Below the pieces are notes generated by a model, which ran no database searches, had not been told where the DNA came from, and saw only the letters and a program-made list of their open reading frames with translations. Shown piece by piece: positions 541-40,725 of a stretch of 48,410 nucleotides of DNA (the stretch's first letter is position 1; each line of letters opens with the position of its first letter). A program made the position numbers and the translations under genes. Source of the stretch: a virus (taxonomy: Duplodnaviria > Heunggongvirae > Uroviricota > Caudoviricetes); IMG/VR virus record IMGVR_UViG_2531839667_000010, positions 1 through 48,410 of that record, one strand, 5' to 3'.

Positions 541-1578
541 TTAACGCTTATCCGCCACCAGTTTGAGCGCGTGTTCCAGCACATTAATGTCTGCACCCGC
601 TTTATGGGCATTTTCACTTAAATAACGCCGCCACTGCCGCGCGCCAGGAATACCCTGGAACAAGCCCAGCATATGCCGGGTAATATGGCCGAGATACGTA
701 CCCTGGCTGAGTTCACGCTCAATGTACGGATACATGGCGCGCACTACCGCCACCGGATCAGCATCAGTATCCGAGGAACCAAAAATCTCTCGGTCTACCG
801 CCGCCAGAATCCCCGGATTCTGATACGCTTCGCGCCCGACCATCACGCCATCCATATGTTGCAAATGCGCTTTAGCCTCTTCCAGCGACTTGATGCCACC
901 GTTAATCGACATCGTCAGATGCGGAAAGTCACGCTTCAGTTGATACACACGCGGATAATCGAGAGGCGGGATCTCACGGTTTTCTTTCGGACTTAACCCA
1001 GAAAGCCAGGCTTTACGTGCGTGGATGATGAACATCTCACACTCACCTTTGCCGGAAACGGTGTTGATGAAATCGCAGAGAAATTCATAGCTGTCCTGAT
1101 CATCGATGCCAATACGCGTCTTCACCGTCACCGGAATCGACACCACATCGCGCATCGCTTTCACGCAGTCGGCAACCAGCTGCGCATTACCCATCAGACA
1201 CGCACCAAACATGCCGTTCTGCACCCGGTCAGACGGGCAGCCGACATTCAGGTTGATCTCATCGTATCCACGCGCTTCTGCCAGCTTCGCACACTGTGCC
1301 AGCGCCGCCGGATCACTACCCCCGAGTTGCAACGCTACCGGATGTTCTTCTTCACTGTACGCCAGGTAATCACCTTTACCGTGAATAATCGCCCCTGTGG
1401 TCACCATTTCGGTATACAGCAACGTATTGCGGGAAAGCAGACGCAAGAAATAGCGGCAATGTCTGTCCGTCCAGTCGAGCATAGGAGCAATGCTAAACCG
1501 AGAATTCCAGTAAACACCAGTTTTTTCAGGCATCACGCTGGTTTGATTAATTTTTTGTGTTTCATGATTATCGTGCAT
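541..1578 (-). CDS. dusA: tRNA-dihydrouridine synthase A
   Basis: 345-aa ORF with the Dus/TIM-barrel flavoenzyme pattern ([19 protein letters not shown]); near-identical to my recollection of E. coli DusA except the first ~30 residues. Confidence 0.95.
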
Positions 1579-1666
1579 TTTTGAACATTTCAGGCTATTT
1601 TTCTCGCGTTAGGTTCCCGCACAGGTTCCCACGTTTTATGGGAACCCGAAATAACGAGGTCGTGTA

Positions 1667-2764
1667 ATGGCGTACTATAACATAGAGAAACGACTAAAAT
1701 CCGATGGCACACCACGCTATCGCTGTAATGTGATTATCAAAGAAAAAGGTGTTATCACTTACAGGGAAAGCAAAACATTCCCTAAACATGCTCATGCCAA
1801 AACATGGGGCACACAGAAAGTGATGGAATTAGATCTATATGGCATTCCATCATCAAATGCAGTTGACGGACTTACAGTCCGTGACTTACTACACAAATAT
1901 TTAAATGACCCAAATGCCGGAGGTAAAGCAGGCCGTACTAAAAGATATGTGCTGGAACTGCTTATGGATAGTGACATCTCCGCGATCAAACTATCTGAAC
2001 TGACAGAAAATGACGTAATTGAACATTGCAGGCTAAGAAACAACGCTGGTGCAGGTCCAGCTACAGTTAGCCACGATGTTAGTTATCTTGGCAGTGTTCT
2101 GGATGCTGCCAAACCTGTATATGGAATTAATTACACATCAAACCCAGCAAAAGCCGCTCGTCCATATCTACTTAAACTTGGTTTAATTGGTAAATCAAAC
2201 CGTCGTAATCGTAGACCAGCATCTGATGAACTGGACATGCTCATTGAAGGCCTTCAACAACGATCTACTCATAAATGCTCAAAAATTCCGTTCGTTGATA
2301 TCCTCAAATTTTCTGTGTGGTCCTGTATGCGAATCGGAGAAGTATGCCGGTTACGATGGGAAGATCTCGACCAGGAACAAAAATCTATACTCGTAAGAGA
2401 CAGGAAAGATCCACGCAAAAAGGAAGGCAACCACATGAAAGTAGCCTTGCTTGGGGAAGCCTGGGATATCGTCCAACGACAGCCCCAAAAATCGGAATTC
2501 ATTTTTCCATATAACAGCACTTCTGTTACTGCGGGATTTCAGAGGGTAAGAAGCAAATTAGGTATTAAGGATCTGCGATACCATGATTTGCGTAGAGAAG
2601 GGGCAAGTCGCTTATTTGAGGCTGGTTTTAGTATTGAGGAAGTAGCCCAGGTTACAGGGCATCGTTCATTAAACGTGCTATGGCAGGTATATACCGAACT
2701 GTATCCAAAATCTTTACATAATCGTTTTGAAGAGCTCCAAAGGAGCAGAAATAAGATCTCTTGA
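1667..2764 (+). CDS. int: Tyrosine-type phage integrase (dusA-associated arrangement)
   Basis: 365 aa; C-terminal catalytic region with LRYHDLRREGASRL (H-x-x-R) and GHRSLNVLWQVYTEL (Tyr nucleophile); divergent from and immediately beside the dusA 5' end. Confidence 0.9.
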   Translation: MAYYNIEKRLKSDGTPRYRCNVIIKEKGVITYRESKTFPKHAHAKTWGTQKVMELDLYGIPSSNAVDGLTVRDLLHKYLNDPNAGGKAGRTKRYVLELLMDSDISAIKLSELTENDVIEHCRLRNNAGAGPATVSHDVSYLGSVLDAAKPVYGINYTSNPAKAARPYLLKLGLIGKSNRRNRRPASDELDMLIEGLQQRSTHKCSKIPFVDILKFSVWSCMRIGEVCRLRWEDLDQEQKSILVRDRKDPRKKEGNHMKVALLGEAWDIVQRQPQKSEFIFPYNSTSVTAGFQRVRSKLGIKDLRYHDLRREGASRLFEAGFSIEEVAQVTGHRSLNVLWQVYTELYPKSLHNRFEELQRSRNKIS

Positions 2765-2812
2765 CACTGTTTATCCATACAGTTAAAAATAATACTGTAT
2801 ACAAACACAGTA
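2761..2812 (+). promoter_or_regulatory. SOS-regulated promoter with two LexA boxes
   Basis: TTGACA at 2761-2766 with TAAAAT about 17 nt downstream; two CTGT-N8-ACAG motifs (ctgtttatccatacag 2767-2782, ctgtatacaaacacag 2795-2810); AGAGGGA Shine-Dalgarno before the ATG at 2826. Confidence 0.6.
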
Positions 2813-2825
2813 TAGAGGGACTTTT

Positions 2826-3044
2826 ATGCGTATTGAAATCTGCATAGCCAAAGAAAAAATGACTAAAATGCCAACCGGTGCTGTGGATGCGTTAAAGGAA
2901 GAATTAACCCGACGCATCAGTAAACGTTATGACGATGTAGAGGTGATCGTAAAAGCCACCAGCAACGATGGCCTTTCTGTTACACGCACCGCAGATAAGG
3001 ATTCTGCAAAAACTTTTGGGGTATTCGGGATAAGTAGTTGTTGA
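2826..3044 (+). pseudogene. dinI: DinI-like protein, 5' portion, interrupted by an IS after codon 64
   Basis: [31 protein letters not shown] resembles the DinI N-terminus as I recall it; the frame runs into IS sequence at 3019 and ends with unrelated residues. Confidence 0.7.
3011..3018. repeat. Target-site duplication (left copy), AACTTTTG
   Basis: Identical 8-mer directly flanks the IS at 5679-5686. Confidence 0.65.
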
Positions 3045-3095
3045 AAACCTTTTGATAAGATCTGCAATTCATTTTTATAGACGGTGAAAGTTGTT

Positions 3096-3123
3096 GTTGA
3101 CCTCCTGATCGGATTCCTATACT
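3096..3123 (+). promoter_or_regulatory. Putative sigma-70 promoter inside the IS
   Basis: GTTGAC(C) then TATACT; spacer 15-16 nt, so sub-optimal. About 250 nt upstream of the ORF6N gene. Confidence 0.3.
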
Positions 3124-3369
3124 GTTTGTCTCACGAGGCGTAGAAACCTCTCCAAAAGCGGTCCGAACCAACCCCGATAGTGTTGGATTTTTTATGCCTG
3201 TTATTCAGTGATTGCACTGTATGCGGTCACACCCCGATCAATGTCGGGAGGGCGACGAATACAACACCCAGCGATGGGGAATAAGTTCGCGGTATCTTTT
3301 GGGCCGTTTCTAACCTCCCGACACCCACTTATGTGGATTTCCGTAGAAAGAAACCAAAAGAGGTCAGTC

Positions 3370-4262
3370 ATGACTAACCATTCTCCAGTAGAAAGCCTGC
3401 CAGTTGTTACCTATAACAGCCTCCCGGTGATCACCACCGAACTGCTGGCAAAACTCTACAATACCGAACCCAAATACATTCAAACCAACACGGCGCGTAA
3501 TGAATCACGTTTCGTTGCTGGAAAGCACTTCTTTAAACTGGAAGGCACTGAATAAAAGACTTTAAGAACAGACCATCTTCAAGAGGGTTAGTTGGTTCTC
3601 GCGCTCGTAGCCTTGTTCTCTGGACGGAGCGCGGTGCCGCTCGCCACGCCAAAATGCTCGAAACCGATCAGGCGTGGGAAGTGTTCGAAAAGCTGGAAGA
3701 CTTCTATTTTAGCCAGAAGGAAAAGGCCGAGCAGATTCGTAAGAATCGCCAGTGTACAGCTACCCAGCTTATCCCGCTGCGCCAAACGGCAGAACGGTTA
3801 ATCACGACAGGCCTCGGCAAAATCTATCCCGACATATGGAAGCTGGTTCATCAGCGCTTCGATGTTGAGCATATCCACCAGTTGCAGCCTGAGCAGGTCG
3901 GTGAAGCCATCGAGTATCTGAACGTGCTGGAAGGTGAGTACCTGGGGCGCGAGACGCTTCCGGCAACCCCATCAGTGCATTTCACCAACGAGGAGCTTTG
4001 CGCTCTCTGCTGGGTATGGAATGCCGCCGAATACATGCGGGAGAAGATAGAGCTGGCCTATCCCGCAATGAAAACTCTCAAGTCTGAATACGCACCGAGC
4101 TTCTACTCAATGGCATTTGAGTATCAGCGAACACTGGAAGCCGGTAGAAAGGTTCTCGAACGGGAAACAAAACACATCGTTCCGCATCCTCACAGCGTGT
4201 CAGATGAAAACTGGCGGCGAGTCCTGCCTCGTCTGCGCCAAAATAGCTTACCTCGCGGATAA
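3370..4262 (+). pseudogene. ORF6N-domain (antirepressor-type) protein gene with a frameshift near 3550
   Basis: N-terminal frame (ATG 3370, GAGG Shine-Dalgarno) ends FFKLEGTE at TAA 3553-3555; a second frame continues ...SLVLWTERGAARHAKMLETDQAWEVFEKLEDFYF to 4262, matching my recollection of the ORF6N family; consistent with loss of one T at ctgaa-t-aaaag. Confidence 0.55.
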
Positions 4263-4276
4263 TAAGGGACAAAACG

Positions 4277-5599
4277 ATGAGCGAGATTGCACCAACGAGC
4301 CTGTTACACCCTCTGAAAGCTACCGTTCTGGATTTTCAGGAGGATGAGCACGACTATCAGTTCAAGGTTGAATACCCGGAGCCGACCTGCTGCCATGCCT
4401 GCGGTGCAGTGTCTGACATCATCCGCTTTAACAAAAAGCTGGTGAAGTACCGGGATGTTCCCATGCACGGGAAGCGCGTCACGCTCTGGGTCGTAACACG
4501 CCGTTATCAGTGCAAATCATGCAAAGGCACATTCACCCCGGCCATCCCCGAGATGGCCGAAGCCCACCGCATGACAAAGCGCTGCTATCAGTACATCATT
4601 AAACGTGCGCTGACCGGCACTAACGCCAGCGTCGCGCAAGATGTTGGCTTTGATGAGTCCGTCACCCGTGGGGTCATCAAGTCCTACTGCGAGCAAAAGG
4701 CGAAGACCTATAAGCCTGTGCTGCCGCGAGTGCTGGGCATTGATGAGCTGTACCTGAACAAAACCTTCCGCTGTGTCCTGACCAACATCGAGCAGGGAAC
4801 CATTATTGACATACTGGAATCCCGGCAAAGTAACGTCATCTACAACCGTCTGGCGCATATGGAAGGCCGTGAGAACGTGCAGATCGTCTGTCAGGATATG
4901 TGGAAGCCATACCGTGACGTTGCCAGCCAGCTATTCCCTAAAGCCAGCATCGTCGTTGACCGCTTCCATATCCAGCGCATGGCTAACGAGGCGATGGAAA
5001 TGCTGCGTAAGTCGCTCAAAAAGGATCTGACAGTACACCACCGACGGCAGCTTAAAGGCGACCGTAAGATGATGTTGATGCGTAAGCGTGACCTTAACCC
5101 TATGCAGCAGATGATTATCGAAACGTGGCTGGATCACTATCCTGAGTTGGGTCTGGCCTATCAGCTCAAGGAAGAGTTCTTTGATATCTGGCTGGCACAG
5201 ACTGAACCTGAGGCCAGAATGCGCTATCAGAACTGGCTGGCAAAGATACCCGAGCATCATAAAAAGCACTGGAAGCCGCTGATAACATCCATGACGAACT
5301 GGGAGAAAGAGATATTCGCCTACTTCGGCCCGGCCCAGCGGAAGACCAACGCCTTTACGGAATCCATCAACCGCAAGATGCGCGATCTGAACCGTGATTC
5401 GCGCGGAATGTCCTTTGAGATGTTCAGGGCTAAAACACTGTTCACTCTCAAGCATAAGTTCAGCAAGCCTAAACCAGTGAAAGAATCACCGTTCACGGTT
5501 GGCTATGTCACCGCTGGTTCGTGGGATCTGGATGATGAAATCCGGGACGATTACGGCGTATCTATCGACGCTATTCTGGAATCCAAAATCGGCGAATAA
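4277..5599 (+). CDS. ISL3-family transposase
   Basis: 440 aa; N-terminal zinc-finger/HTH pattern (CCHACG ... [10 protein letters not shown]) typical of ISL3 transposases; sits between ISL3-like terminal repeats with an 8-bp duplication. Confidence 0.75.
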
Positions 5600-5678
5600 A
5601 TAGCCGCCAACAACACACCCATCATTTTCCATTTAACGGGGTTCGGGATGTCCTAACAACAGGATTTCCCGAATACCC

Positions 5679-5686
5679 AACTTTTG
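5679..5686. repeat. Target-site duplication (right copy), AACTTTTG
   Basis: Identical to 3011-3018. Confidence 0.65.
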
Positions 5687-5742
5687 TTCAGGAGACTCTG
5701 AAAGATACCTGGGAATCTGCTGACGAGTGGTTTGTTCACTAA
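5687..5742 (+). pseudogene. dinI: DinI-like protein, displaced 3' end
   Basis: Joining 3018 to 5687 gives ...[23 protein letters not shown]-stop, resembling the conserved DinI C-terminus. Confidence 0.6.
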
Positions 5743-5885
5743 TTAACACGTAAAATCGGTAACGGCTGGAAATCATTCAATACTCGCACTATCGAAAGTT
5801 CGCCAGCCAGCCGCAGCACGTTCTTGCATACGACGTGGCTGCGGCTTCCAACATTAGACAAATAACTCTTTAAATTGCTTTTAAA

Positions 5886-6449
5886 TTATTTCGTTTGAAT
5901 GCCAGTAACAGGAAATCGTTTATATAGGGTTGATAGCCCAACGTTATAGATACGTGCAACATAACGCCGTGATTTCCCTGCCGCTATGAGCGCTCCCATC
6001 TGTTGCCACTGCTCGTCGCTAAACTTCGGTCTACGCCCACCAATCCGGCCTTTGGATCTGGCAATAGCCAAACCAGCTAAAGTTCGCTCGCTATTCAAAT
6101 CAGATTCATACTGCGCAGCAGAAAGAATATTACGGAAATTATAGCGACCACTTGCTGTTTTCAGGTCTACGCCATCTGTAATACTGCGGAAGTTGATACC
6201 CTTTTCCTGTAACTGCTGGAACATCAACAGCGCATGCAGAACGTTGCGGCCTATCCTGTCCAGCTTCCAGACCACCAGTTCATCCCCCGGCTGCATAGTG
6301 GCGATCAGCCGTTTTAGAACCGGCCGATTCGATTTCCTCCCGCTGGCATGCTCTTCAAAAATTTTCTCACAACCCGCTGACTTGAGCGCCGTTAGTTGCA
6401 ATTCAGTGTCCTGGTGGTTTGTTGATACTCGGGCATAACCGTAAATCAT
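5886..6449 (-). CDS. Serine recombinase / DNA invertase (Pin/Gin/Hin family)
   Basis: 187 aa from MIYGYARVSTNHQDTELQ (catalytic Ser region) with a C-terminal HTH; AGGAG Shine-Dalgarno. The listed 278-aa ORF is an upstream over-extension. Confidence 0.85.
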   Translation of the reverse strand: MIYGYARVSTNHQDTELQLTALKSAGCEKIFEEHASGRKSNRPVLKRLIATMQPGDELVVWKLDRIGRNVLHALLMFQQLQEKGINFRSITDGVDLKTASGRYNFRNILSAAQYESDLNSERTLAGLAIARSKGRIGGRRPKFSDEQWQQMGALIAAGKSRRYVARIYNVGLSTLYKRFPVTGIQTK

Positions 6450-6501
6450 GGGATTTCTCCTGTTATGAAAACAGGAGAAACGGCGAAGCATCACCAGATT
6501 T

Positions 6502-6972
6502 TTGATGGTTATAAAAAAGGTTGGTTTGGGAGAAGGCTCTGCATTACCTGTTGGTGTCCCTGTTCCGTGGCCTTCAGCTACGCCGCCAACAGGCTGGCTG
6601 AAATGCAATGGCGCTGCCTTTGATAAGGTTAAATATCCCCGTCTTGCTACAGCATATCCATCAGGGAAACTACCTGATCTCCGCGGTGAGTTTATTCGTG
6701 GCTGGGATGATGGGCGCAGCATTGATACAGGGCGTGCTTTATTGAGTATTCAGAGTGATGAAGTCAGAAAGCTCGCATTAAAATACTGGGGACCAGCTTC
6801 AAACAGTTCACCATCAAAAACATTTGCACTCAGCGACAGTGCCGGTGGCGGGTTGTACACGGATGGAATAAGTCAGGCAAGCGGTGGGATTATCAACGCT
6901 TTTCAGCTCCCTGGCGGTAACGAAACCCGCCCACGAAATGTTGCATTTAACTATATCGTGAGGGCTGCATAA
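6502..6972 (+). CDS. Alternative tail-fibre C-terminal cassette, currently in the silent orientation
   Basis: No ATG (the frame opens after TGA 6466-6468); carries the conserved tail-fibre C-terminal motif PWPSATPPTGWLKCNGAAF...DLRGEFIRGWDDGR; preceded by a crossover site that shares reading phase with the expressed fibre. Confidence 0.6.
   Translation: MMVIKKVGLGEGSALPVGVPVPWPSATPPTGWLKCNGAAFDKVKYPRLATAYPSGKLPDLRGEFIRGWDDGRSIDTGRALLSIQSDEVRKLALKYWGPASNSSPSKTFALSDSAGGGLYTDGISQASGGIINAFQLPGGNETRPRNVAFNYIVRAA
6509..6534. other. Invertase crossover site (hix/gix-like), left
   Basis: TTATAAAAAAGGTTGGTTTGGGAGAA; its reverse complement TTCTCCCAAACCAACCTTTTTTATAA resembles hix and shares 14 bp with the right site. 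Confidence 0.6.
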
Positions 6973-7574
6973 TGGATAATGCTGTATTAAATAGCGAGTT
7001 TATTGCCACGAAGGCGGGGAGTATTACCGTCTATAACTATGATAGTGAAACACGGGAATATATTTCCACGTCAACTGAATATCTTGCTGTGGGTGTCGGT
7101 ATTCCGGCATGTTCCTGTCTTGATGCACCTGGCATACATAAGGTTGGTTATGCAATCTGTCGTTCTGTGAATTTAAATTCATGGGAATATGTGCCAGACC
7201 ATCGCGGTGAAATCGTCTATAGCACCGAAACAGGAGAATCAAAAGAAATCACAGCTCCGGGTGATTACCCTGAAAATACAACCACTATCGCCCCTTTATC
7301 TCCATACGATAAATGGGATGGTGAGAAATGGGTGACCGATACTGAGGCACAGCATAGCGCCGCAGTAGACGCGGCAGAAGCACAGCGCCAGTCACTGATT
7401 GATGCTGCTATGGCTTCCATCAGTCTGATTCAACTGAAATTGCAGGCCGGACGGAAACTGACGCAGGCAGAAACAACCCGACTTAACGCCGTGCTGGATT
7501 ACACTGACGCGGTGACGGCAACAGATACCAGCACCGCGCCGGATGTCATCTGGCCTGAACTGCCGGCGGCGTAG
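6972..7574 (+). CDS. Tail fibre assembly protein (partner of the silent cassette)
   Basis: 200 aa; C-terminal ...LNAVLDYTDAVTATDTSTAPDVIWPELPAA pattern typical of Tfa chaperones; immediately follows the alternative fibre cassette. Confidence 0.7.
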   Translation: MDNAVLNSEFIATKAGSITVYNYDSETREYISTSTEYLAVGVGIPACSCLDAPGIHKVGYAICRSVNLNSWEYVPDHRGEIVYSTETGESKEITAPGDYPENTTTIAPLSPYDKWDGEKWVTDTEAQHSAAVDAAEAQRQSLIDAAMASISLIQLKLQAGRKLTQAETTRLNAVLDYTDAVTATDTSTAPDVIWPELPAA

Positions 7575-7998
7575 GCCATTTAATATCTGGCGCACCGGAA
7601 GTATCGACCAGTTCCAGTGCGTCCAGATAATCCAGCCACAGATTATATTGCGCCAGTTCCTCGCCTTTCAGACGACCAATAGCCGCTTTACCAGGCCATT
7701 GTTTACTGTTCATATAATCGTTGGCCTGATTAATTAGTAGCTGTCTTTCTGATTCAGTAATTTCAATAAGTTCTTCATGCGTAGGGGCAGGAATATCCGC
7801 CCACGCGGGCAGCCCATCACCTCCGGCAATACGGATTTTTCCTTGTGGCGGTTCAGCCATAAATTCACTGATAATATTTTGACTCACCTCCTTAGCATCT
7901 GATAAATCCCATCCCTCTGATTTATATTTATCAATCATATCCACAGGGAAAAAAGCATTATGCCTTGCGCTATAAACATATTCGTTCATATAAATCAT
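7546..7998 (-). CDS. Tail fibre assembly protein (expressed orientation)
   Basis: 150 aa; C-terminal ...LDYLDALELVDTSGAPDIKWPTPPAV Tfa motif; convergent with the other tfa, as in invertible G/C-segment systems. Confidence 0.7.
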   Translation of the reverse strand: MIYMNEYVYSARHNAFFPVDMIDKYKSEGWDLSDAKEVSQNIISEFMAEPPQGKIRIAGGDGLPAWADIPAPTHEELIEITESERQLLINQANDYMNSKQWPGKAAIGRLKGEELAQYNLWLDYLDALELVDTSGAPDIKWPTPPAVQAR

Positions 7999-8009
7999 CC
8001 TGAATAAAA

Positions 8010-8858
8010 TTATTCACCAACAGCCCACCAACTGTAAATCATTGACACCTTGTCGCTGGTTGATGCAGTTCTGTAAGCAGAATTAAAGCCGGTTAATGTT
8101 GGGCCTTCTACGGACATAACGAATCCACGCCCTGCACCAAAAGGCGCACCGCCATCGCCAGAATGGGTAAGAATGGCGATATCCGCTTTTTTAGGGAAAG
8201 GGATAGGAAATGTAATCCTCATTGTTTGCGTCGATAATTTCGGCATAGCCTCACCTCGACCATATTGCAGGATTTTCCCGTTGGGTAATTTCATCCATCC
8301 ATCACCACTGGCAAACGAGGCCATGTCCGGTATCTGATTTTCCCCTGTCCCCACATTCCGTTTTGCCGCTTCTCCCAAACCAAGGTTTGTGCGAGCGTCT
8401 GCGGCATTCGTTGCGCCGGTTCCGCCGTCTGCGACAGTAACCGCACCGTTGCTCCCTTTCTGCGCAAGTTTACCGATGCCAGGGATGGTTACGGTGGTCC
8501 CGTTGATGGTAACTGTGATGCTTTGGTTTGCTGAGGTAGTGGCGAACGTCTCCCACGCGCCAATGTTCTCGTCATACTCTTTGATGAGCTGCGACATTGC
8601 CTGGGCCAGTCCGTCCACGGAGATAATGTCTGACACCAGAATGGCGTATTTCTGGCCGCTCAGCGCCGGGGAAGCGGCAGGCGTAACCGTCATTGACGTG
8701 GCGCTGTTCACGGATGAAATCTGGAACAGTTGCACCGGGTTAGACATCACGATAATTGTCTGCCCAGCGCGAACCTGGCTGGCGGGAGCTGTCCAGTTTG
8801 TGCCGGAGCCGGTTGCGGTATTTCCTTTAATAGAGATAGTTCCGGTGCTATAAATCAT
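8010..8858 (-). CDS. Side tail fibre protein (constant N-terminal part fused to the currently selected variable C-terminus)
   Basis: 282 aa; a crossover site lies in-frame at 8370-8395 (encoding ...TNLGLGE...). Confidence 0.8.
8370..8395. other. Invertase crossover site (hix/gix-like), right, inside the tail fibre gene
   Basis: TTCTCCCAAACCAAGGTTTGTGCGAG; inverted relative to the left site; same codon phase (GLGE) in both contexts. Confidence 0.6.
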
Positions 8859-8935
8859 AACAACTCCTAAATTTAGACAACATGAAGCCCGGAGAGGTAT
8901 ATAACCATCACCAGAAATAATTTCTGAATTGGTTT

Positions 8936-9238
8936 TTAATACATGTTGGGCAACGCCAGTGTTGGCATAGCTATAGTTGTATCAAATGCCATTGACCACC
9001 CACCCCAATAATAATTGCCGACTACTTTATTCCTTTCCGCTATGACATTCCCACCTGTCATTACAATTCCTTTATACCTAATATTTCCGTAACCACCAAC
9101 GTGTCGACAGTTAGCCCCGGTATAAACAATCTGGCAAAATTCATCACCAATATTCAGGTTCGCATTGTCGATATTTATTGTCCCATCAAAAATGAATGGC
9201 TTCGTGCAAGTAAGAAGACGTTTGCGTTGACGATTGGT
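8936..9238 (-). pseudogene. Start-less remnant of a tail-fibre/tailspike-like gene
   Basis: About 100 open codons with no start codon between stops, encoding ...GTINIDNANLNIGDEF...GGNVIAERNKVVGNYYWGGW..., a repetitive beta-rich pattern. Confidence 0.3.
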
Positions 9239-32250: not shown

Positions 32251-33303
32251 TTATTCCCCTGCCAGCTGCCTTACCTCACTTACCGTCTGGTTGAAACGTT
32301 CCTCTTCCAGTTCTACGCCGATAGCCTGGCGGCCCAGTTCAATGGCTGCTTTAACAGTTGATCCCGAGCCCATAAAGAAATCAGCTACCACATCGCCGGG
32401 CCTGCTGCTGGCGTTGATGATTTGCCGCAACATATCAGCGGGCTTTTCGCACGGGTGTTTGCCTGGATAGAACTGGACGGGTTTATGTGTCCAGACGTCT
32501 GTATAGGGCACGGCTACTGTCACAGAGAAATGCCGCCGAAGAGATTTGTACTCTTCCAGCAGATCAAGGTATTTCCGGTTCAACGAATGCCATGTGGCCA
32601 CCAGCTGGTGATGCGGTGCTTTGAGTTCAGAGGCGCGGTGCTTCTCAATGGCGATCTGAGTGAACAATTCCTGCAGCTTTTCGTAATCCTGCTCGTTTGG
32701 TAGTTGCCACTGACTGGTACCGAACCAGTGAGACGCCATATTTTTCTTTCCGGTAGCGTCAGCTATTTGCCTGGACGTGACCCCCAGTTCGGCTCGTGCA
32801 TCACGAAAGTAGGTGATTAACGGAGCCATGACGTGCTGTTTGACCTCGTTGCTTTTCTCAGCAAATCCGTCGCTTTTCGGCTTATATGGCCCCTGATAAT
32901 GCTCAGCGAAAAGGATGCGTTCCGTCGCGGGGAAGTAAGAGCGCAGGCTTTCTTTATTACAACCGTTCCAACGCCCTGATGGCTTCGCCCAGATAATGTG
33001 GTTCATGACGTTGAAGCGTTCACGCATCATGATCTCAATATCAGATGCCAGGCGATGCCCACAGAACAGGTAAAGGCTTCCGGCAGGTTTCAACACCCGC
33101 CAGAACTGGGCCAGACAGAGGTCCAGCCACTTAAGGTAATCTTCGTCCCCTTTCCACTGATTGTCCCAACCGTTAGGTTTCACCTTGAAGTAAGGCGGAT
33201 CGGTAACAATCAGGTCAATGGAATCATCAGGCAGGGACTGAATAAAATGCAGGCAATCAGCGTTGATTAAATCAACACTGTTTATTTTTACAGTATTTTT
33301 CAT
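32251..33303 (-). CDS. DNA methyltransferase (N6-adenine/N4-cytosine family, DPPY motif), orphan
   Basis: 350 aa with IVTDPPYF catalytic motif; no adjacent restriction endonuclease gene seen. Confidence 0.85.
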   Translation of the reverse strand: MKNTVKINSVDLINADCLHFIQSLPDDSIDLIVTDPPYFKVKPNGWDNQWKGDEDYLKWLDLCLAQFWRVLKPAGSLYLFCGHRLASDIEIMMRERFNVMNHIIWAKPSGRWNGCNKESLRSYFPATERILFAEHYQGPYKPKSDGFAEKSNEVKQHVMAPLITYFRDARAELGVTSRQIADATGKKNMASHWFGTSQWQLPNEQDYEKLQELFTQIAIEKHRASELKAPHHQLVATWHSLNRKYLDLLEEYKSLRRHFSVTVAVPYTDVWTHKPVQFYPGKHPCEKPADMLRQIINASSRPGDVVADFFMGSGSTVKAAIELGRQAIGVELEEERFNQTVSEVRQLAGE

Positions 33304-39568: not shown

Positions 39569-40725
39569 TTGCGCCCCCTTACCTCTGAAGAGTTCAGCGA
39601 CGAATGAATAAGACGGGCAAGAAATGCCGCATCGTTAATTCGGTCATACAGACTTACAGCCAGCGGTGATTCAGCTTTTTCCAGCATGGGATAAAGCTGC
39701 TGCAACCAGACCTGATGAATTGATGAAATGTAGGAATAGAGAACGCTGGCGTTATGTGCAACGTCGCTCAGTACAGAGGGATTTGAAAGCTGTTTCTCCA
39801 TCTGGTTAAAGGCATTGATGTATGCCTCTTTGAACCGGGCAGCACGTTTACCAGTGAAGCCCATAGCAAGGAACGCGAAGCCATCGCGGGTTATTTGATA
39901 GCAAGGTAGTTTGCGAGTACCGCCGTTGGGCTGGCGTACCAAAATTGATGTCTCCGCAAAATTGCGGGCACAAAACTCTGGAGAACAATCCAAAATGCGA
40001 ATCTTTTTCAGAACATCGTCATGACGTTTAGAGAAGAAGTCAGCAACAGCCAAAGAAGATGTAACAGCCTGACCATCAACGATGGCAATTTCAGGTTGAG
40101 AGAGGGTTGGGACAGTAGCCATGATGGCAGCCTCCGTATGCAATGGATAACTTCCACCACCGGAAACGCCAATTTCGCTGGTGGTGAACTGAGCAGGGTT
40201 GGCGTAACCGGCGCATACGGAAACCGGCGCACCTTTCGGTGCCCCCACCCAGCCCACCATAATTTGGGTATAGCTGAGTTGTAGCAACAAAAAAGACGCT
40301 AACGCGCCAATTGTCGCCGTATGCAATTCCAGGACGCCAATCCCGGCACCCGCTTTATAAGGTGCCTGAACAGTGTAACGTCCCGGAATGGCAGAATCAA
40401 TGTGCTGGTGGTCCTTCACACTCAACAAAATCACGCCTGAATTTCCACAAAGGACTAAAGCACTCATGCGGGTAGTCTTTGCGAAGATAGATAACGCGCT
40501 GTGTTTCTGGCTCCCAACGAATAACATGGACATAAAGCCCTCTTCCGTCACGAAACCAGCGGTTAAGTTCCTGCACAACTCGCCCCCCACAGTCAGGTAA
40601 AGTTCTCTGTGGTTACTTACAGCCAGGTGATTTGGTAATCTGCATTCATGCCGTAACAACAGGTGTTCAGCGACGCTGACCACCAGCTGTTGCGACAAAC
40701 GGTTATTTGCCGTTAAACTGTTCAT
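39565..40725 (-). CDS. Rha-domain phage regulatory protein (start uncertain)
   Basis: Rha-type domain (...IVDGQAVTSSLAVADFFSKRHDDVLKKI...) in residues about 205-300. The longest ORF starts at 40725, coupled to the upstream stop; an internal ATG at 40121-40123 with a GGAGG Shine-Dalgarno would give a 186-aa Rha protein. Confidence 0.55.
   Translation of the reverse strand: MNSLTANNRLSQQLVVSVAEHLLLRHECRLPNHLAVSNHRELYLTVGGELCRNLTAGFVTEEGFMSMLFVGSQKHSALSIFAKTTRMSALVLCGNSGVILLSVKDHQHIDSAIPGRYTVQAPYKAGAGIGVLELHTATIGALASFLLLQLSYTQIMVGWVGAPKGAPVSVCAGYANPAQFTTSEIGVSGGGSYPLHTEAAIMATVPTLSQPEIAIVDGQAVTSSLAVADFFSKRHDDVLKKIRILDCSPEFCARNFAETSILVRQPNGGTRKLPCYQITRDGFAFLAMGFTGKRAARFKEAYINAFNQMEKQLSNPSVLSDVAHNASVLYSYISSIHQVWLQQLYPMLEKAESPLAVSLYDRINDAAFLARLIHSSLNSSEVRGRK

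Follow-up and report, generated by a model that had tools for sequence, protein, structure and literature searches.

How did a prophage gene for a DinI-like protein come to lie in two pieces, and what is the DNA that now separates them? The question is raised by the viral record IMGVR_UViG_2531839667_000010 (Caudoviricetes), whose 48,410 nucleotides are referred to here as the window. An earlier note on this DNA had described a promoter with two LexA-type boxes in front of an open reading frame (ORF) that loses its similarity to DinI at codon 64, and had attributed the break to a recently inserted element of the ISL3 family. Our analysis leaves little doubt that the locus is best explained by a recent transposition of an ISL3-family insertion sequence (IS) into an SOS-type dinI-like gene of a lambdoid prophage integrated at dusA, and the event itself is an ordinary IS insertion. 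The features that carry this explanation are given below in window positions.

2826-3018, plus strand: 5′ part of the dinI-like gene (codons 1-64 and the first base of codon 65)
3011-3018, no strand: left copy of the target-site duplication, AACTTTTG, present once in empty sites
3019-5678, plus strand: ISL3-family insertion sequence of 2660 bp, in the same direction of transcription as dinI
3019-3042, no strand: left terminal inverted repeat, GGGTATTCGGGATAAGTAGTTGTT, located with a repeat finder
4277-5599, plus strand: ISL3-family transposase gene, intact, 440 amino acids, starting 14 nucleotides after the stop codon of an antirepressor-like gene
5655-5678, no strand: right terminal inverted repeat, AACAACAGGATTTCCCGAATACCC
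5679-5686, no strand: right copy of the target-site duplication, AACTTTTG
5687-5742, plus strand: orphaned 3′ part of the dinI-like gene (the rest of codon 65 to the stop codon), encoding the C-terminal acidic helix

In regard to the split gene, the truncated ORF occupies 2826-3044 and encodes 72 amino acids, ending with a TGA codon (3042-3044) that belongs to the IS. Its DinI sequence ends at codon 64 and the insertion junction falls within codon 65; reading of the sequence and exact-string checks placed both this break and the missing C-terminus (5687-5742) where the earlier note had put them. Excision of the element together with one copy of the repeat, which joins 2826-3018 to 5687-5742, restores an in-frame ORF of 82 amino acids with the full length of a DinI-family protein, as had been predicted. 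The joined sequence aligns with DinI end to end: it covers the whole Pfam DinI model PF06183 (positions 1-63 of 63, E 1.1e-19), its residues 1-79 align with the solved E. coli DinI structure 1GHH (E 3.7e-13), and it matches the PHROG family 'RecA filament binding protein DinI' (E 5.7e-31). The 72-residue ORF as present in the window is without residues 65-82, and because the truncated product lacks them, DinI function is likely lost in the fragment. The C-terminal helix that is missing is, we assume, the DNA-mimicking helix of DinI. In the interaction with RecA, a negatively charged DinI helix mimics DNA (Voloshin et al. 2001, as cited in PMC3121763).

The inserted element is bounded by perfect 12-bp termini, GGGTATTCGGGA at 3019-3030 and TCCCGAATACCC at 5667-5678, each occurring once in the 48-kb window. 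The description of its ends as 12-bp terminal inverted repeats is correct for these first 12 positions, but the full repeats extend to about 24 bp and are imperfect, with 19 of 24 nucleotides matching (79%) between 3019-3042 and 5655-5678 according to the repeat finder. Both the perfect 8-bp flanking direct repeats and the size of 2660 bp were confirmed. The same junctions with the same 8-mers are found in two independent public assemblies, the drafts GCA_000194665.2 and GCA_002466085.1, which are 100% identical to positions 777-9099 of the window. Neither of the refuting conditions named in the earlier note, a joined ORF unlike DinI or non-identical 8-mers, came true.

The empty site is present in related strains, where the earlier note had suggested looking for it. 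A sequence search found an uninterrupted counterpart of the joined sequence in 68 complete E. coli genomes (at least 80% coverage) and also in phages SKA5 and mEp460, and the annotation of empty sites follows the order integrase, DinI-like protein, invertase or tail fibre. In a three-way alignment with mEp460 and the empty-site strain E. coli ARL09/232, AACTTTTG is single and the joined window sequence differs from mEp460 by one upstream base over 338 nucleotides, while within the coding sequence the restored gene and mEp460 agree at every base. Relative to five copies elsewhere, the IS itself lacks a single T and is otherwise the same. Such near-identical copies at other sites, one T apart, show that the insertion is recent, and the earlier statement to this effect also agrees with the perfect duplication and with the identity of the restored gene to that of mEp460. 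This IS was found in dinI in 0 of 5426 complete E. coli genomes. In E. coli ARL09/232, dusA adjoins the same integrase-dinI module, and positions 1-1600 of the window (pspG, dusA) are 99.4% identical to E. coli; this similarity and gene order identify the host of the IS as a lambdoid E. coli prophage with dusA as its integration site.

The assignment to the ISL3 family, also made in the earlier note, holds for the transposase in both Pfam and NCBIfam, with scores above the cutoffs. The protein matches DDE_Tnp_ISL3 (PF01610, E 3.6e-59, profile positions 1-239 of 240) and transpos_ISL3 (NF033550, 285.5 bits against a cutoff of 180), its N-terminus matches Zn_ribbon_ISL3 (PF14690, E 3.2e-8, 34.3 bits, above the cutoff of 25.5), and it is identical to WP_001289332.1. 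The element thus shows the features by which ISL3 members are recognised, namely an ISL3-type DDE transposase, a zinc ribbon, an 8-bp duplication, and terminal repeats within about 15-40 bp. Its closest described relative is presumably ISPst9 of Pseudomonas stutzeri, an element about 2.47 kb long, with 24-bp terminal repeats and 8-bp AT-rich duplications.

Copies at other locations extend this picture. More than 12 other insertion sites of the lineage were found, each with its own perfect 8-bp duplication, mostly AT-rich, and judging from these sites the element is mobile and currently active. In E. coli VREC0864, a 98.7% identical copy (positions 6001-8661 of the locus) lies between yobD and mntP, just upstream of mntP, with the duplication GTTTTATG. 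Eight loci with an identical transposase yielded six further sites, with the perfect 8-bp duplications ACAACCAC, ACTTTCAC, CGAAAAAG, AATATTTT, AAATGTTC and TTAATTAC. All of these (6/6) are in prophage DNA: in the Q/holin region, in the nin region, beside an int-dinI module, in the lysis-terminase gap, and in the invertase gene of the same prophage type. Relatives are also present in five IMG/VR viral contigs. The apparent prophage bias of the insertion sites may come from an AT-rich target preference or from spread by phages.

Several points weigh against the explanation given at the outset. The enterobacterial element has no name in public sources, where its protein appears only as 'ISL3 family transposase', and at 2.66 kb it is longer than a typical ISL3 element. 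The reconstructed protein scores below the cutoff of the NCBIfam DinI equivalog PRK10597 (73 against 111 bits); because of this score, the disrupted gene is, by profile comparison, a DinI-like paralogue of prophage origin and not the chromosomal E. coli orthologue. Moreover, non-polar dinI deletions in Gifsy prophages were without effect on induction (PMC3121763).

The interior of the element is richer than the earlier note had it. The transposase mentioned there is present, but it is not alone, as the IS also contains a phage-derived module made up of an RNA and an antirepressor-like gene, with these features upstream of the transposase:

3097-3123, plus strand: possible internal IS promoter, weak (TTGACC, 15 nucleotides, TATACT), read from the sequence
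3168-3195, plus strand: terminator-like hairpin CCAAC-N9-GTTGG followed by AUUUUUUAU, with a putative terminator function
3243-3330, plus strand: sRNA-Xcc1-family RNA (RF02221) by Rfam covariance model, 62.6 bits against a gathering score of 53, model positions 1-87 of 87
3354-3363, plus strand: CCAAAAGA, predicted as the target of the antisense pairing; it overlaps AAGAGG, the Shine-Dalgarno sequence of the antirepressor-like gene
3370-4262, plus strand: antirepressor-like gene, here a pseudogene (ORF6N and P22_AR_C, 297 amino acids if intact), by Pfam and PHROG

The antirepressor-like gene is split into 3370-3555 and 3654-4262 by the loss of one T at about 3552. Its frame-corrected product of 297 amino acids matches ORF6N (E 6.8e-19) and P22_AR_C (E 4.7e-17) in Pfam, as well as PHROG 377 'anti-repressor Ant' (E 5e-59), and by these profiles it is a phage Ant-type antirepressor-like protein; a search with it among the sequences of solved structures gave no match. 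In eight other copies the sequence is GAATTAAAAG and the protein of 297 amino acids is uninterrupted, and since these are intact, the pseudogene state is private to the dinI insertion. In the yobD/mntP copy, the gene is inactivated too, but by another mutation, a G-to-A change at the position of 3671 that falls in a TGG codon, and it is annotated as truncated there. As for the lost T, programmed slippage at 3552 was rejected because the eight other copies have one T more and an uninterrupted 297-residue ORF, and a sequencing error is unlikely as the loss is common to two assemblies, although these possibly come from the same strain.

With these parts in hand, the course of events can be set out. 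A lambdoid prophage at dusA carried a moron-type dinI-like gene beside its integrase, with two LexA-type boxes overlapping the promoter. An active ISL3-family IS of 2661 bp, consisting in order of a terminal repeat, a leader with the terminator-like hairpin, the sRNA-Xcc1-family RNA, the antirepressor-like gene, the transposase gene and the other terminal repeat, then transposed into codon 65 and duplicated the 8-bp target AACTTTTG. The result is a DinI fragment of 72 amino acids without the C-terminal acidic helix, and the gene was most likely inactivated. During or after the insertion, one T was lost from the antirepressor-like gene, leaving 2660 bp and an intact transposase.

The passenger gene varies among relatives of the element. 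In a 2620-bp sister variant, the ends, the transposase and the C-terminal 170 amino acids are unchanged, but the N-terminal domain is KilA-N; 13 places in E. coli GMM060 match this variant, and at one of these it disrupts bcsE. The Klebsiella oxytoca IncL/M plasmid NZ_OW967376.1 carries the KilA-N variant twice, as inverted copies (2501-5120 and from 5738) directly 3′ of blaOXA-48, and this paired arrangement is repeated in several Spanish hospital plasmids; a KilA-N protein and an ISL3 element on OXA-48 plasmids have been noted in the literature. The left terminus of the IS of the window recurs in E. coli, Klebsiella and Pseudomonas relatives. In Pseudomonas oleovorans NZ_NIUB01000001.1, two directly oriented related IS copies (~94-103 kb and 136-146 kb) lie ~42 kb apart and have the outer 8-mer CATTAACC in common, to the left of the first and to the right of the second copy, whereas the inner flanks are not alike, a pattern that marks a large composite transposon. 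In Pseudomonas gregormendelii, an RT-15 RNA (RF03018, 182.9 bits, positions 3285-3475 of the locus) is located directly 3′ of the right end of a related IS.

The sRNA-Xcc1-family RNA lies 40 nucleotides 5′ of the antirepressor-like start codon and has the same position in every enterobacterial copy examined, a position which in Pseudomonas relatives and two viral contigs is taken by isrK and a C4 antisense RNA. For the IS RNA of the window, no C4 (RF01695) match was found at E values up to 1 in 2600-6000, and a relaxed Rfam search for isrK- or C4-like RNA in the left 240 nucleotides of the IS gave noise only; the RNA may have a C4-like mode of action but falls outside that family. From 3135 to the start codon, the leader shows 81-87% identity to regions 5′ of the Ant genes of Shiga toxin (Stx) phages, the same leader is recognisable 5′ of a KilA-N gene in Vibrio phages, and a study of APSE phages noted sRNA-Xcc1 upstream of an ORF6N gene. 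Upstream of the RNA, the stem and U-run of 3168-3195 are invariant in 7/7 leader sequences, that of a Vibrio phage included; this hairpin is not isolated in the minimum-energy fold and was missed by the terminator scan owing to its 9-nucleotide loop. TTGTTGAC of the possible promoter at 3097-3123 is kept at the same place in Pseudomonas relatives, and the promoter consensus scan left this promoter unreported since it accepts a spacing of 16-18 nucleotides only.

A regulatory role for the RNA is suggested by its second hairpin, whose loop UCUUUUGG (3295-3302) is complementary to 3354-3361. Among the copies compared, the loop is complementary to 7-8 nucleotides that abut or overlap the Shine-Dalgarno sequence, and the helix always stops 7-9 nucleotides short of the ATG. 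Loop and target co-vary over seven versions, which include those of the window and of loci L004, L005, L014-L018, L029 and L030:

Version 1: loop UCUUUUGG, target CCAAAAGA
Version 2: loop UCUUACUG, target CAGUAAGG
Version 3: loop UUCUUUAG, target CUAAAGGA
Version 4: loop UCUUUUGG, target CCAAAGGA
Version 5: loop CUUAUGU, target ACAUAAG
Version 6: loop CUCACUGA, target UCAGUGAG
Version 7: loop UGUUUGG, target CCAAACG

Individually, the pairings are weak, as single-sequence shuffles reached the observed helix in 92 to 745 of 5000 cases. Repeated compensatory changes in a fixed register, on the other hand, make it plausible that the sRNA-Xcc1-family RNA masks the ribosome-binding site (RBS) of the antirepressor-like gene in a c4-like manner. 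The RNA may also limit expression of the transposase, because the transposase gene starts 14 nucleotides after the upstream stop codon and because in Pseudomonas relatives the Bro-N and transposase genes abut or overlap; at the P. oleovorans locus, position 3995 is the last of the Bro-N gene, and at 4001 begins a tblastn match to residue 6 of the transposase. From this arrangement we infer that the antirepressor-like gene and the transposase are co-transcribed.

It is conceivable, though we hold it at somewhat less than even chances, that the element represents an undescribed ISL3 subgroup with a captured phage immI-type cassette just 5′ of the transposase gene, in which an RNA (sRNA-Xcc1, or isrK and C4) acting at the RBS of the antirepressor-like gene would set transposase expression by translational coupling or polarity, depending on copy number. 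Elements of this proposed subgroup occur in enterobacteria, Pseudomonas and viral contigs. The association of RNA, antirepressor-like gene and transposase is kept in distant hosts and the loop co-varies with the RBS, which suggests a control of transposase borrowed from phage immunity. Literature searches found no description of a cassette joining such an RNA, an antirepressor-like gene and an ISL3 transposase, and it is only this conserved cassette that is mildly novel.

The region in front of the dinI-like gene contains the promoter and both LexA-type boxes:

2761-2790, plus strand: predicted sigma-70-type promoter (TTGACA, spacer of 17-18 nucleotides, TAAAAA/AAAAAT), 10/12 in the consensus scan
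2767-2782, no strand: LexA-box-like palindrome 1, CACTGTTTATCCATACAGTT, between the -35 and -10 hexamers
2795-2810, no strand: LexA-box-like palindrome 2, TACTGTATACAAACACAGTA, just 3′ of the -10 hexamer

The two CTGT-N8-ACAG boxes reported in the earlier note were found at these positions, 28 bp apart and straddling the -10 region of the TTGACA promoter. By manual count, palindrome 2 agrees with the consensus TACTGTATATATATACAGTA at 17/20 positions. The window has 5 occurrences of the motif where 0.58 would be expected, and 5 was reached in 0 of 100 shuffles. Phage mEp460 has a promoter annotated at the same site, and in the three-way alignment the promoter and both boxes are invariant in the mEp460 and ARL09/232 empty sites. 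We infer LexA control of the dinI promoter. Mitomycin C induces a dinI homologue of the Gifsy prophages that lies next to a LexA box (PMC3121763), and this lends support by analogy to SOS control of the present promoter. Elsewhere in the window, a good LexA-box-like palindrome (TACTGTAAAAATAAACAGTG on the minus strand) is situated at 33278-33293, within codons 4-9 of an ORF of 350 amino acids (32251-33303, minus strand); a gene of the same length in locus L020 is marked PF01555 (N6_N4_Mtase), and the palindrome could be either chance or regulatory.

Could the insertion have placed the operon of the IS under the SOS-inducible dinI promoter, so that DNA damage raises the transposase and, before the frameshift, also raised the antirepressor? 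Such functional rewiring would mimic the LexA-controlled Gifsy operons, where a dinI homologue comes first in a LexA-regulated operon and is followed by an antirepressor gene (PMC3121763). The IS is indeed in the same orientation as dinI, the consensus scan reported no plus-strand terminator between 2826 and 3370, and the antirepressor-like and transposase genes are 14 nucleotides apart, with abutment or overlap in Pseudomonas. The read-through from the SOS promoter into the IS that the earlier note had asserted is plausible on these grounds, yet we consider the rewiring itself unlikely. The antirepressor-like gene is frameshifted in exactly the dinI copy and intact in eight others, which, if anything, suggests selection against its expression there. 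Between the promoter and the genes lie the conserved hairpin with its U-run (3168-3195), which could stop transcripts, and the predicted RBS-masking RNA. Other copies are found in unrelated contexts and in both orientations, so that no targeting to SOS promoters is seen.

A plain ISL3 transposition was also compared with the alternative that the mobile unit is a composite of larger size or an element outside ISL3, for example a cassette of phage origin mobilised by another recombinase, in which the ISL3 transposase would be just a passenger. Part of the interior is in keeping with this, since element positions 117-706 share about 75-87% identity with the antirepressor regions of Stx phages. 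However, terminal repeats, 8-bp duplications and transposase form a single mobile unit (2.46-2.66 kb) in E. coli, on Klebsiella plasmids, in Pseudomonas and in viral contigs, and homology with other insertion sites stops exactly at the terminal repeats, which makes the alternative highly improbable. Finally, although assemblies classically go wrong at IS copies, of which near-identical ones exist elsewhere, it is barely credible that a repeat-induced assembly error misplaced the IS into a dinI gene that is really intact, given that both junctions carry the precise 8-bp duplication, the gene halves fit to the base, and the identical locus appears in two assemblies, in one of them on a 2.7-Mb contig.

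Downstream of the split gene, positions 5886-8858 contain a serine DNA invertase (Resolvase and HTH_7) beside tail-fibre and tail-fibre-assembly ORFs in both orientations, and constitute a typical invertible host-range segment. The invertase ORF of 278 amino acids is over-extended, because annotated relatives have 187. In a related prophage (locus L027), an identical IS sits inside the corresponding invertase gene. Further along the window, a C4 antisense RNA (40177-40264, minus strand, 80.7 bits) lies beside isrK (40289-40365, minus strand, 61.2 bits), and 40177-40365 is presumably the prophage's own immI-like region of antirepressor control. Near this pair, at 40607-40622, there is a CTGT-N8-ACAG motif.

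The insertion into dinI is a textbook knock-out of an accessory prophage gene, of value mainly for strain typing and as a clean example of recent transposition. A proper description and a name for the active element would help annotation, considering its many sites in E. coli prophages and the presence of its relatives on blaOXA-48 IncL/M plasmids. The cassette additionally suggests a concrete function for the sRNA-Xcc1 family. So far, sRNA-Xcc1 has been described as a trans-acting, virulence-linked small RNA; if the proposed control is true, its main role would be the c4-like regulation of antirepressor genes that belong to phages and mobile elements.

Among known systems, the disrupted gene most resembles those of the dinI-antirepressor-irsA operons of Gifsy-1, -2 and -3 and of phage mEp460, where, as in the window, a DinI-family gene is located at the prophage end by a LexA-box promoter. 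Gene 021 of mEp460 is essentially identical to the intact allele of the window gene. Unlike in the Gifsy operons, dinI at the empty site is monocistronic and has no small antirepressor gene downstream, and in the window it is interrupted. The element, in turn, has in common with Pseudomonas ISL3 relatives a DDE_Tnp_ISL3 transposase with an N-terminal zinc ribbon, terminal repeats of ~24 bp, and 8-bp, mostly AT-rich duplications. Transposases of the Pseudomonas elements, one of which is from S. stutzeri CLN100, are 69-75% identical to that of the window, and the terminus GGGTATTCGG(G/A)A is common to both. The passenger modules are different, with ORF6N or KilA-N and sRNA-Xcc1 in enterobacteria, and Bro-N, isrK and C4 in Pseudomonas.

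For the RNA, the immI regions of P1 and P7 (c4, icd, ant) and isrK of Gifsy-1 likewise place a structured leader RNA of ~87 nucleotides 5′ of an antirepressor gene. The likeness to c4 of P1/P7 includes a hairpin loop complementary to the ribosome-binding region of the gene, a pairing which in the IS is predicted from co-variation only, and in Pseudomonas relatives of the IS, genuine C4 and isrK matches occupy the position of the RNA. Unlike in P1/P7, the window RNA matches RF02221 and not RF01695, has no icd-like ORF next to it, and lies inside an IS, where a transposase gene follows. If the IS RNA does limit the transposase, the logic would be that of RNA-OUT of IS10, an element-encoded, RBS-masking RNA that could act in trans on other copies. 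RNA-OUT, however, is antisense to the 5′ end of the transposase gene, whereas the RNA of the present IS is co-directional, lies upstream, and would target the RBS of the preceding gene.

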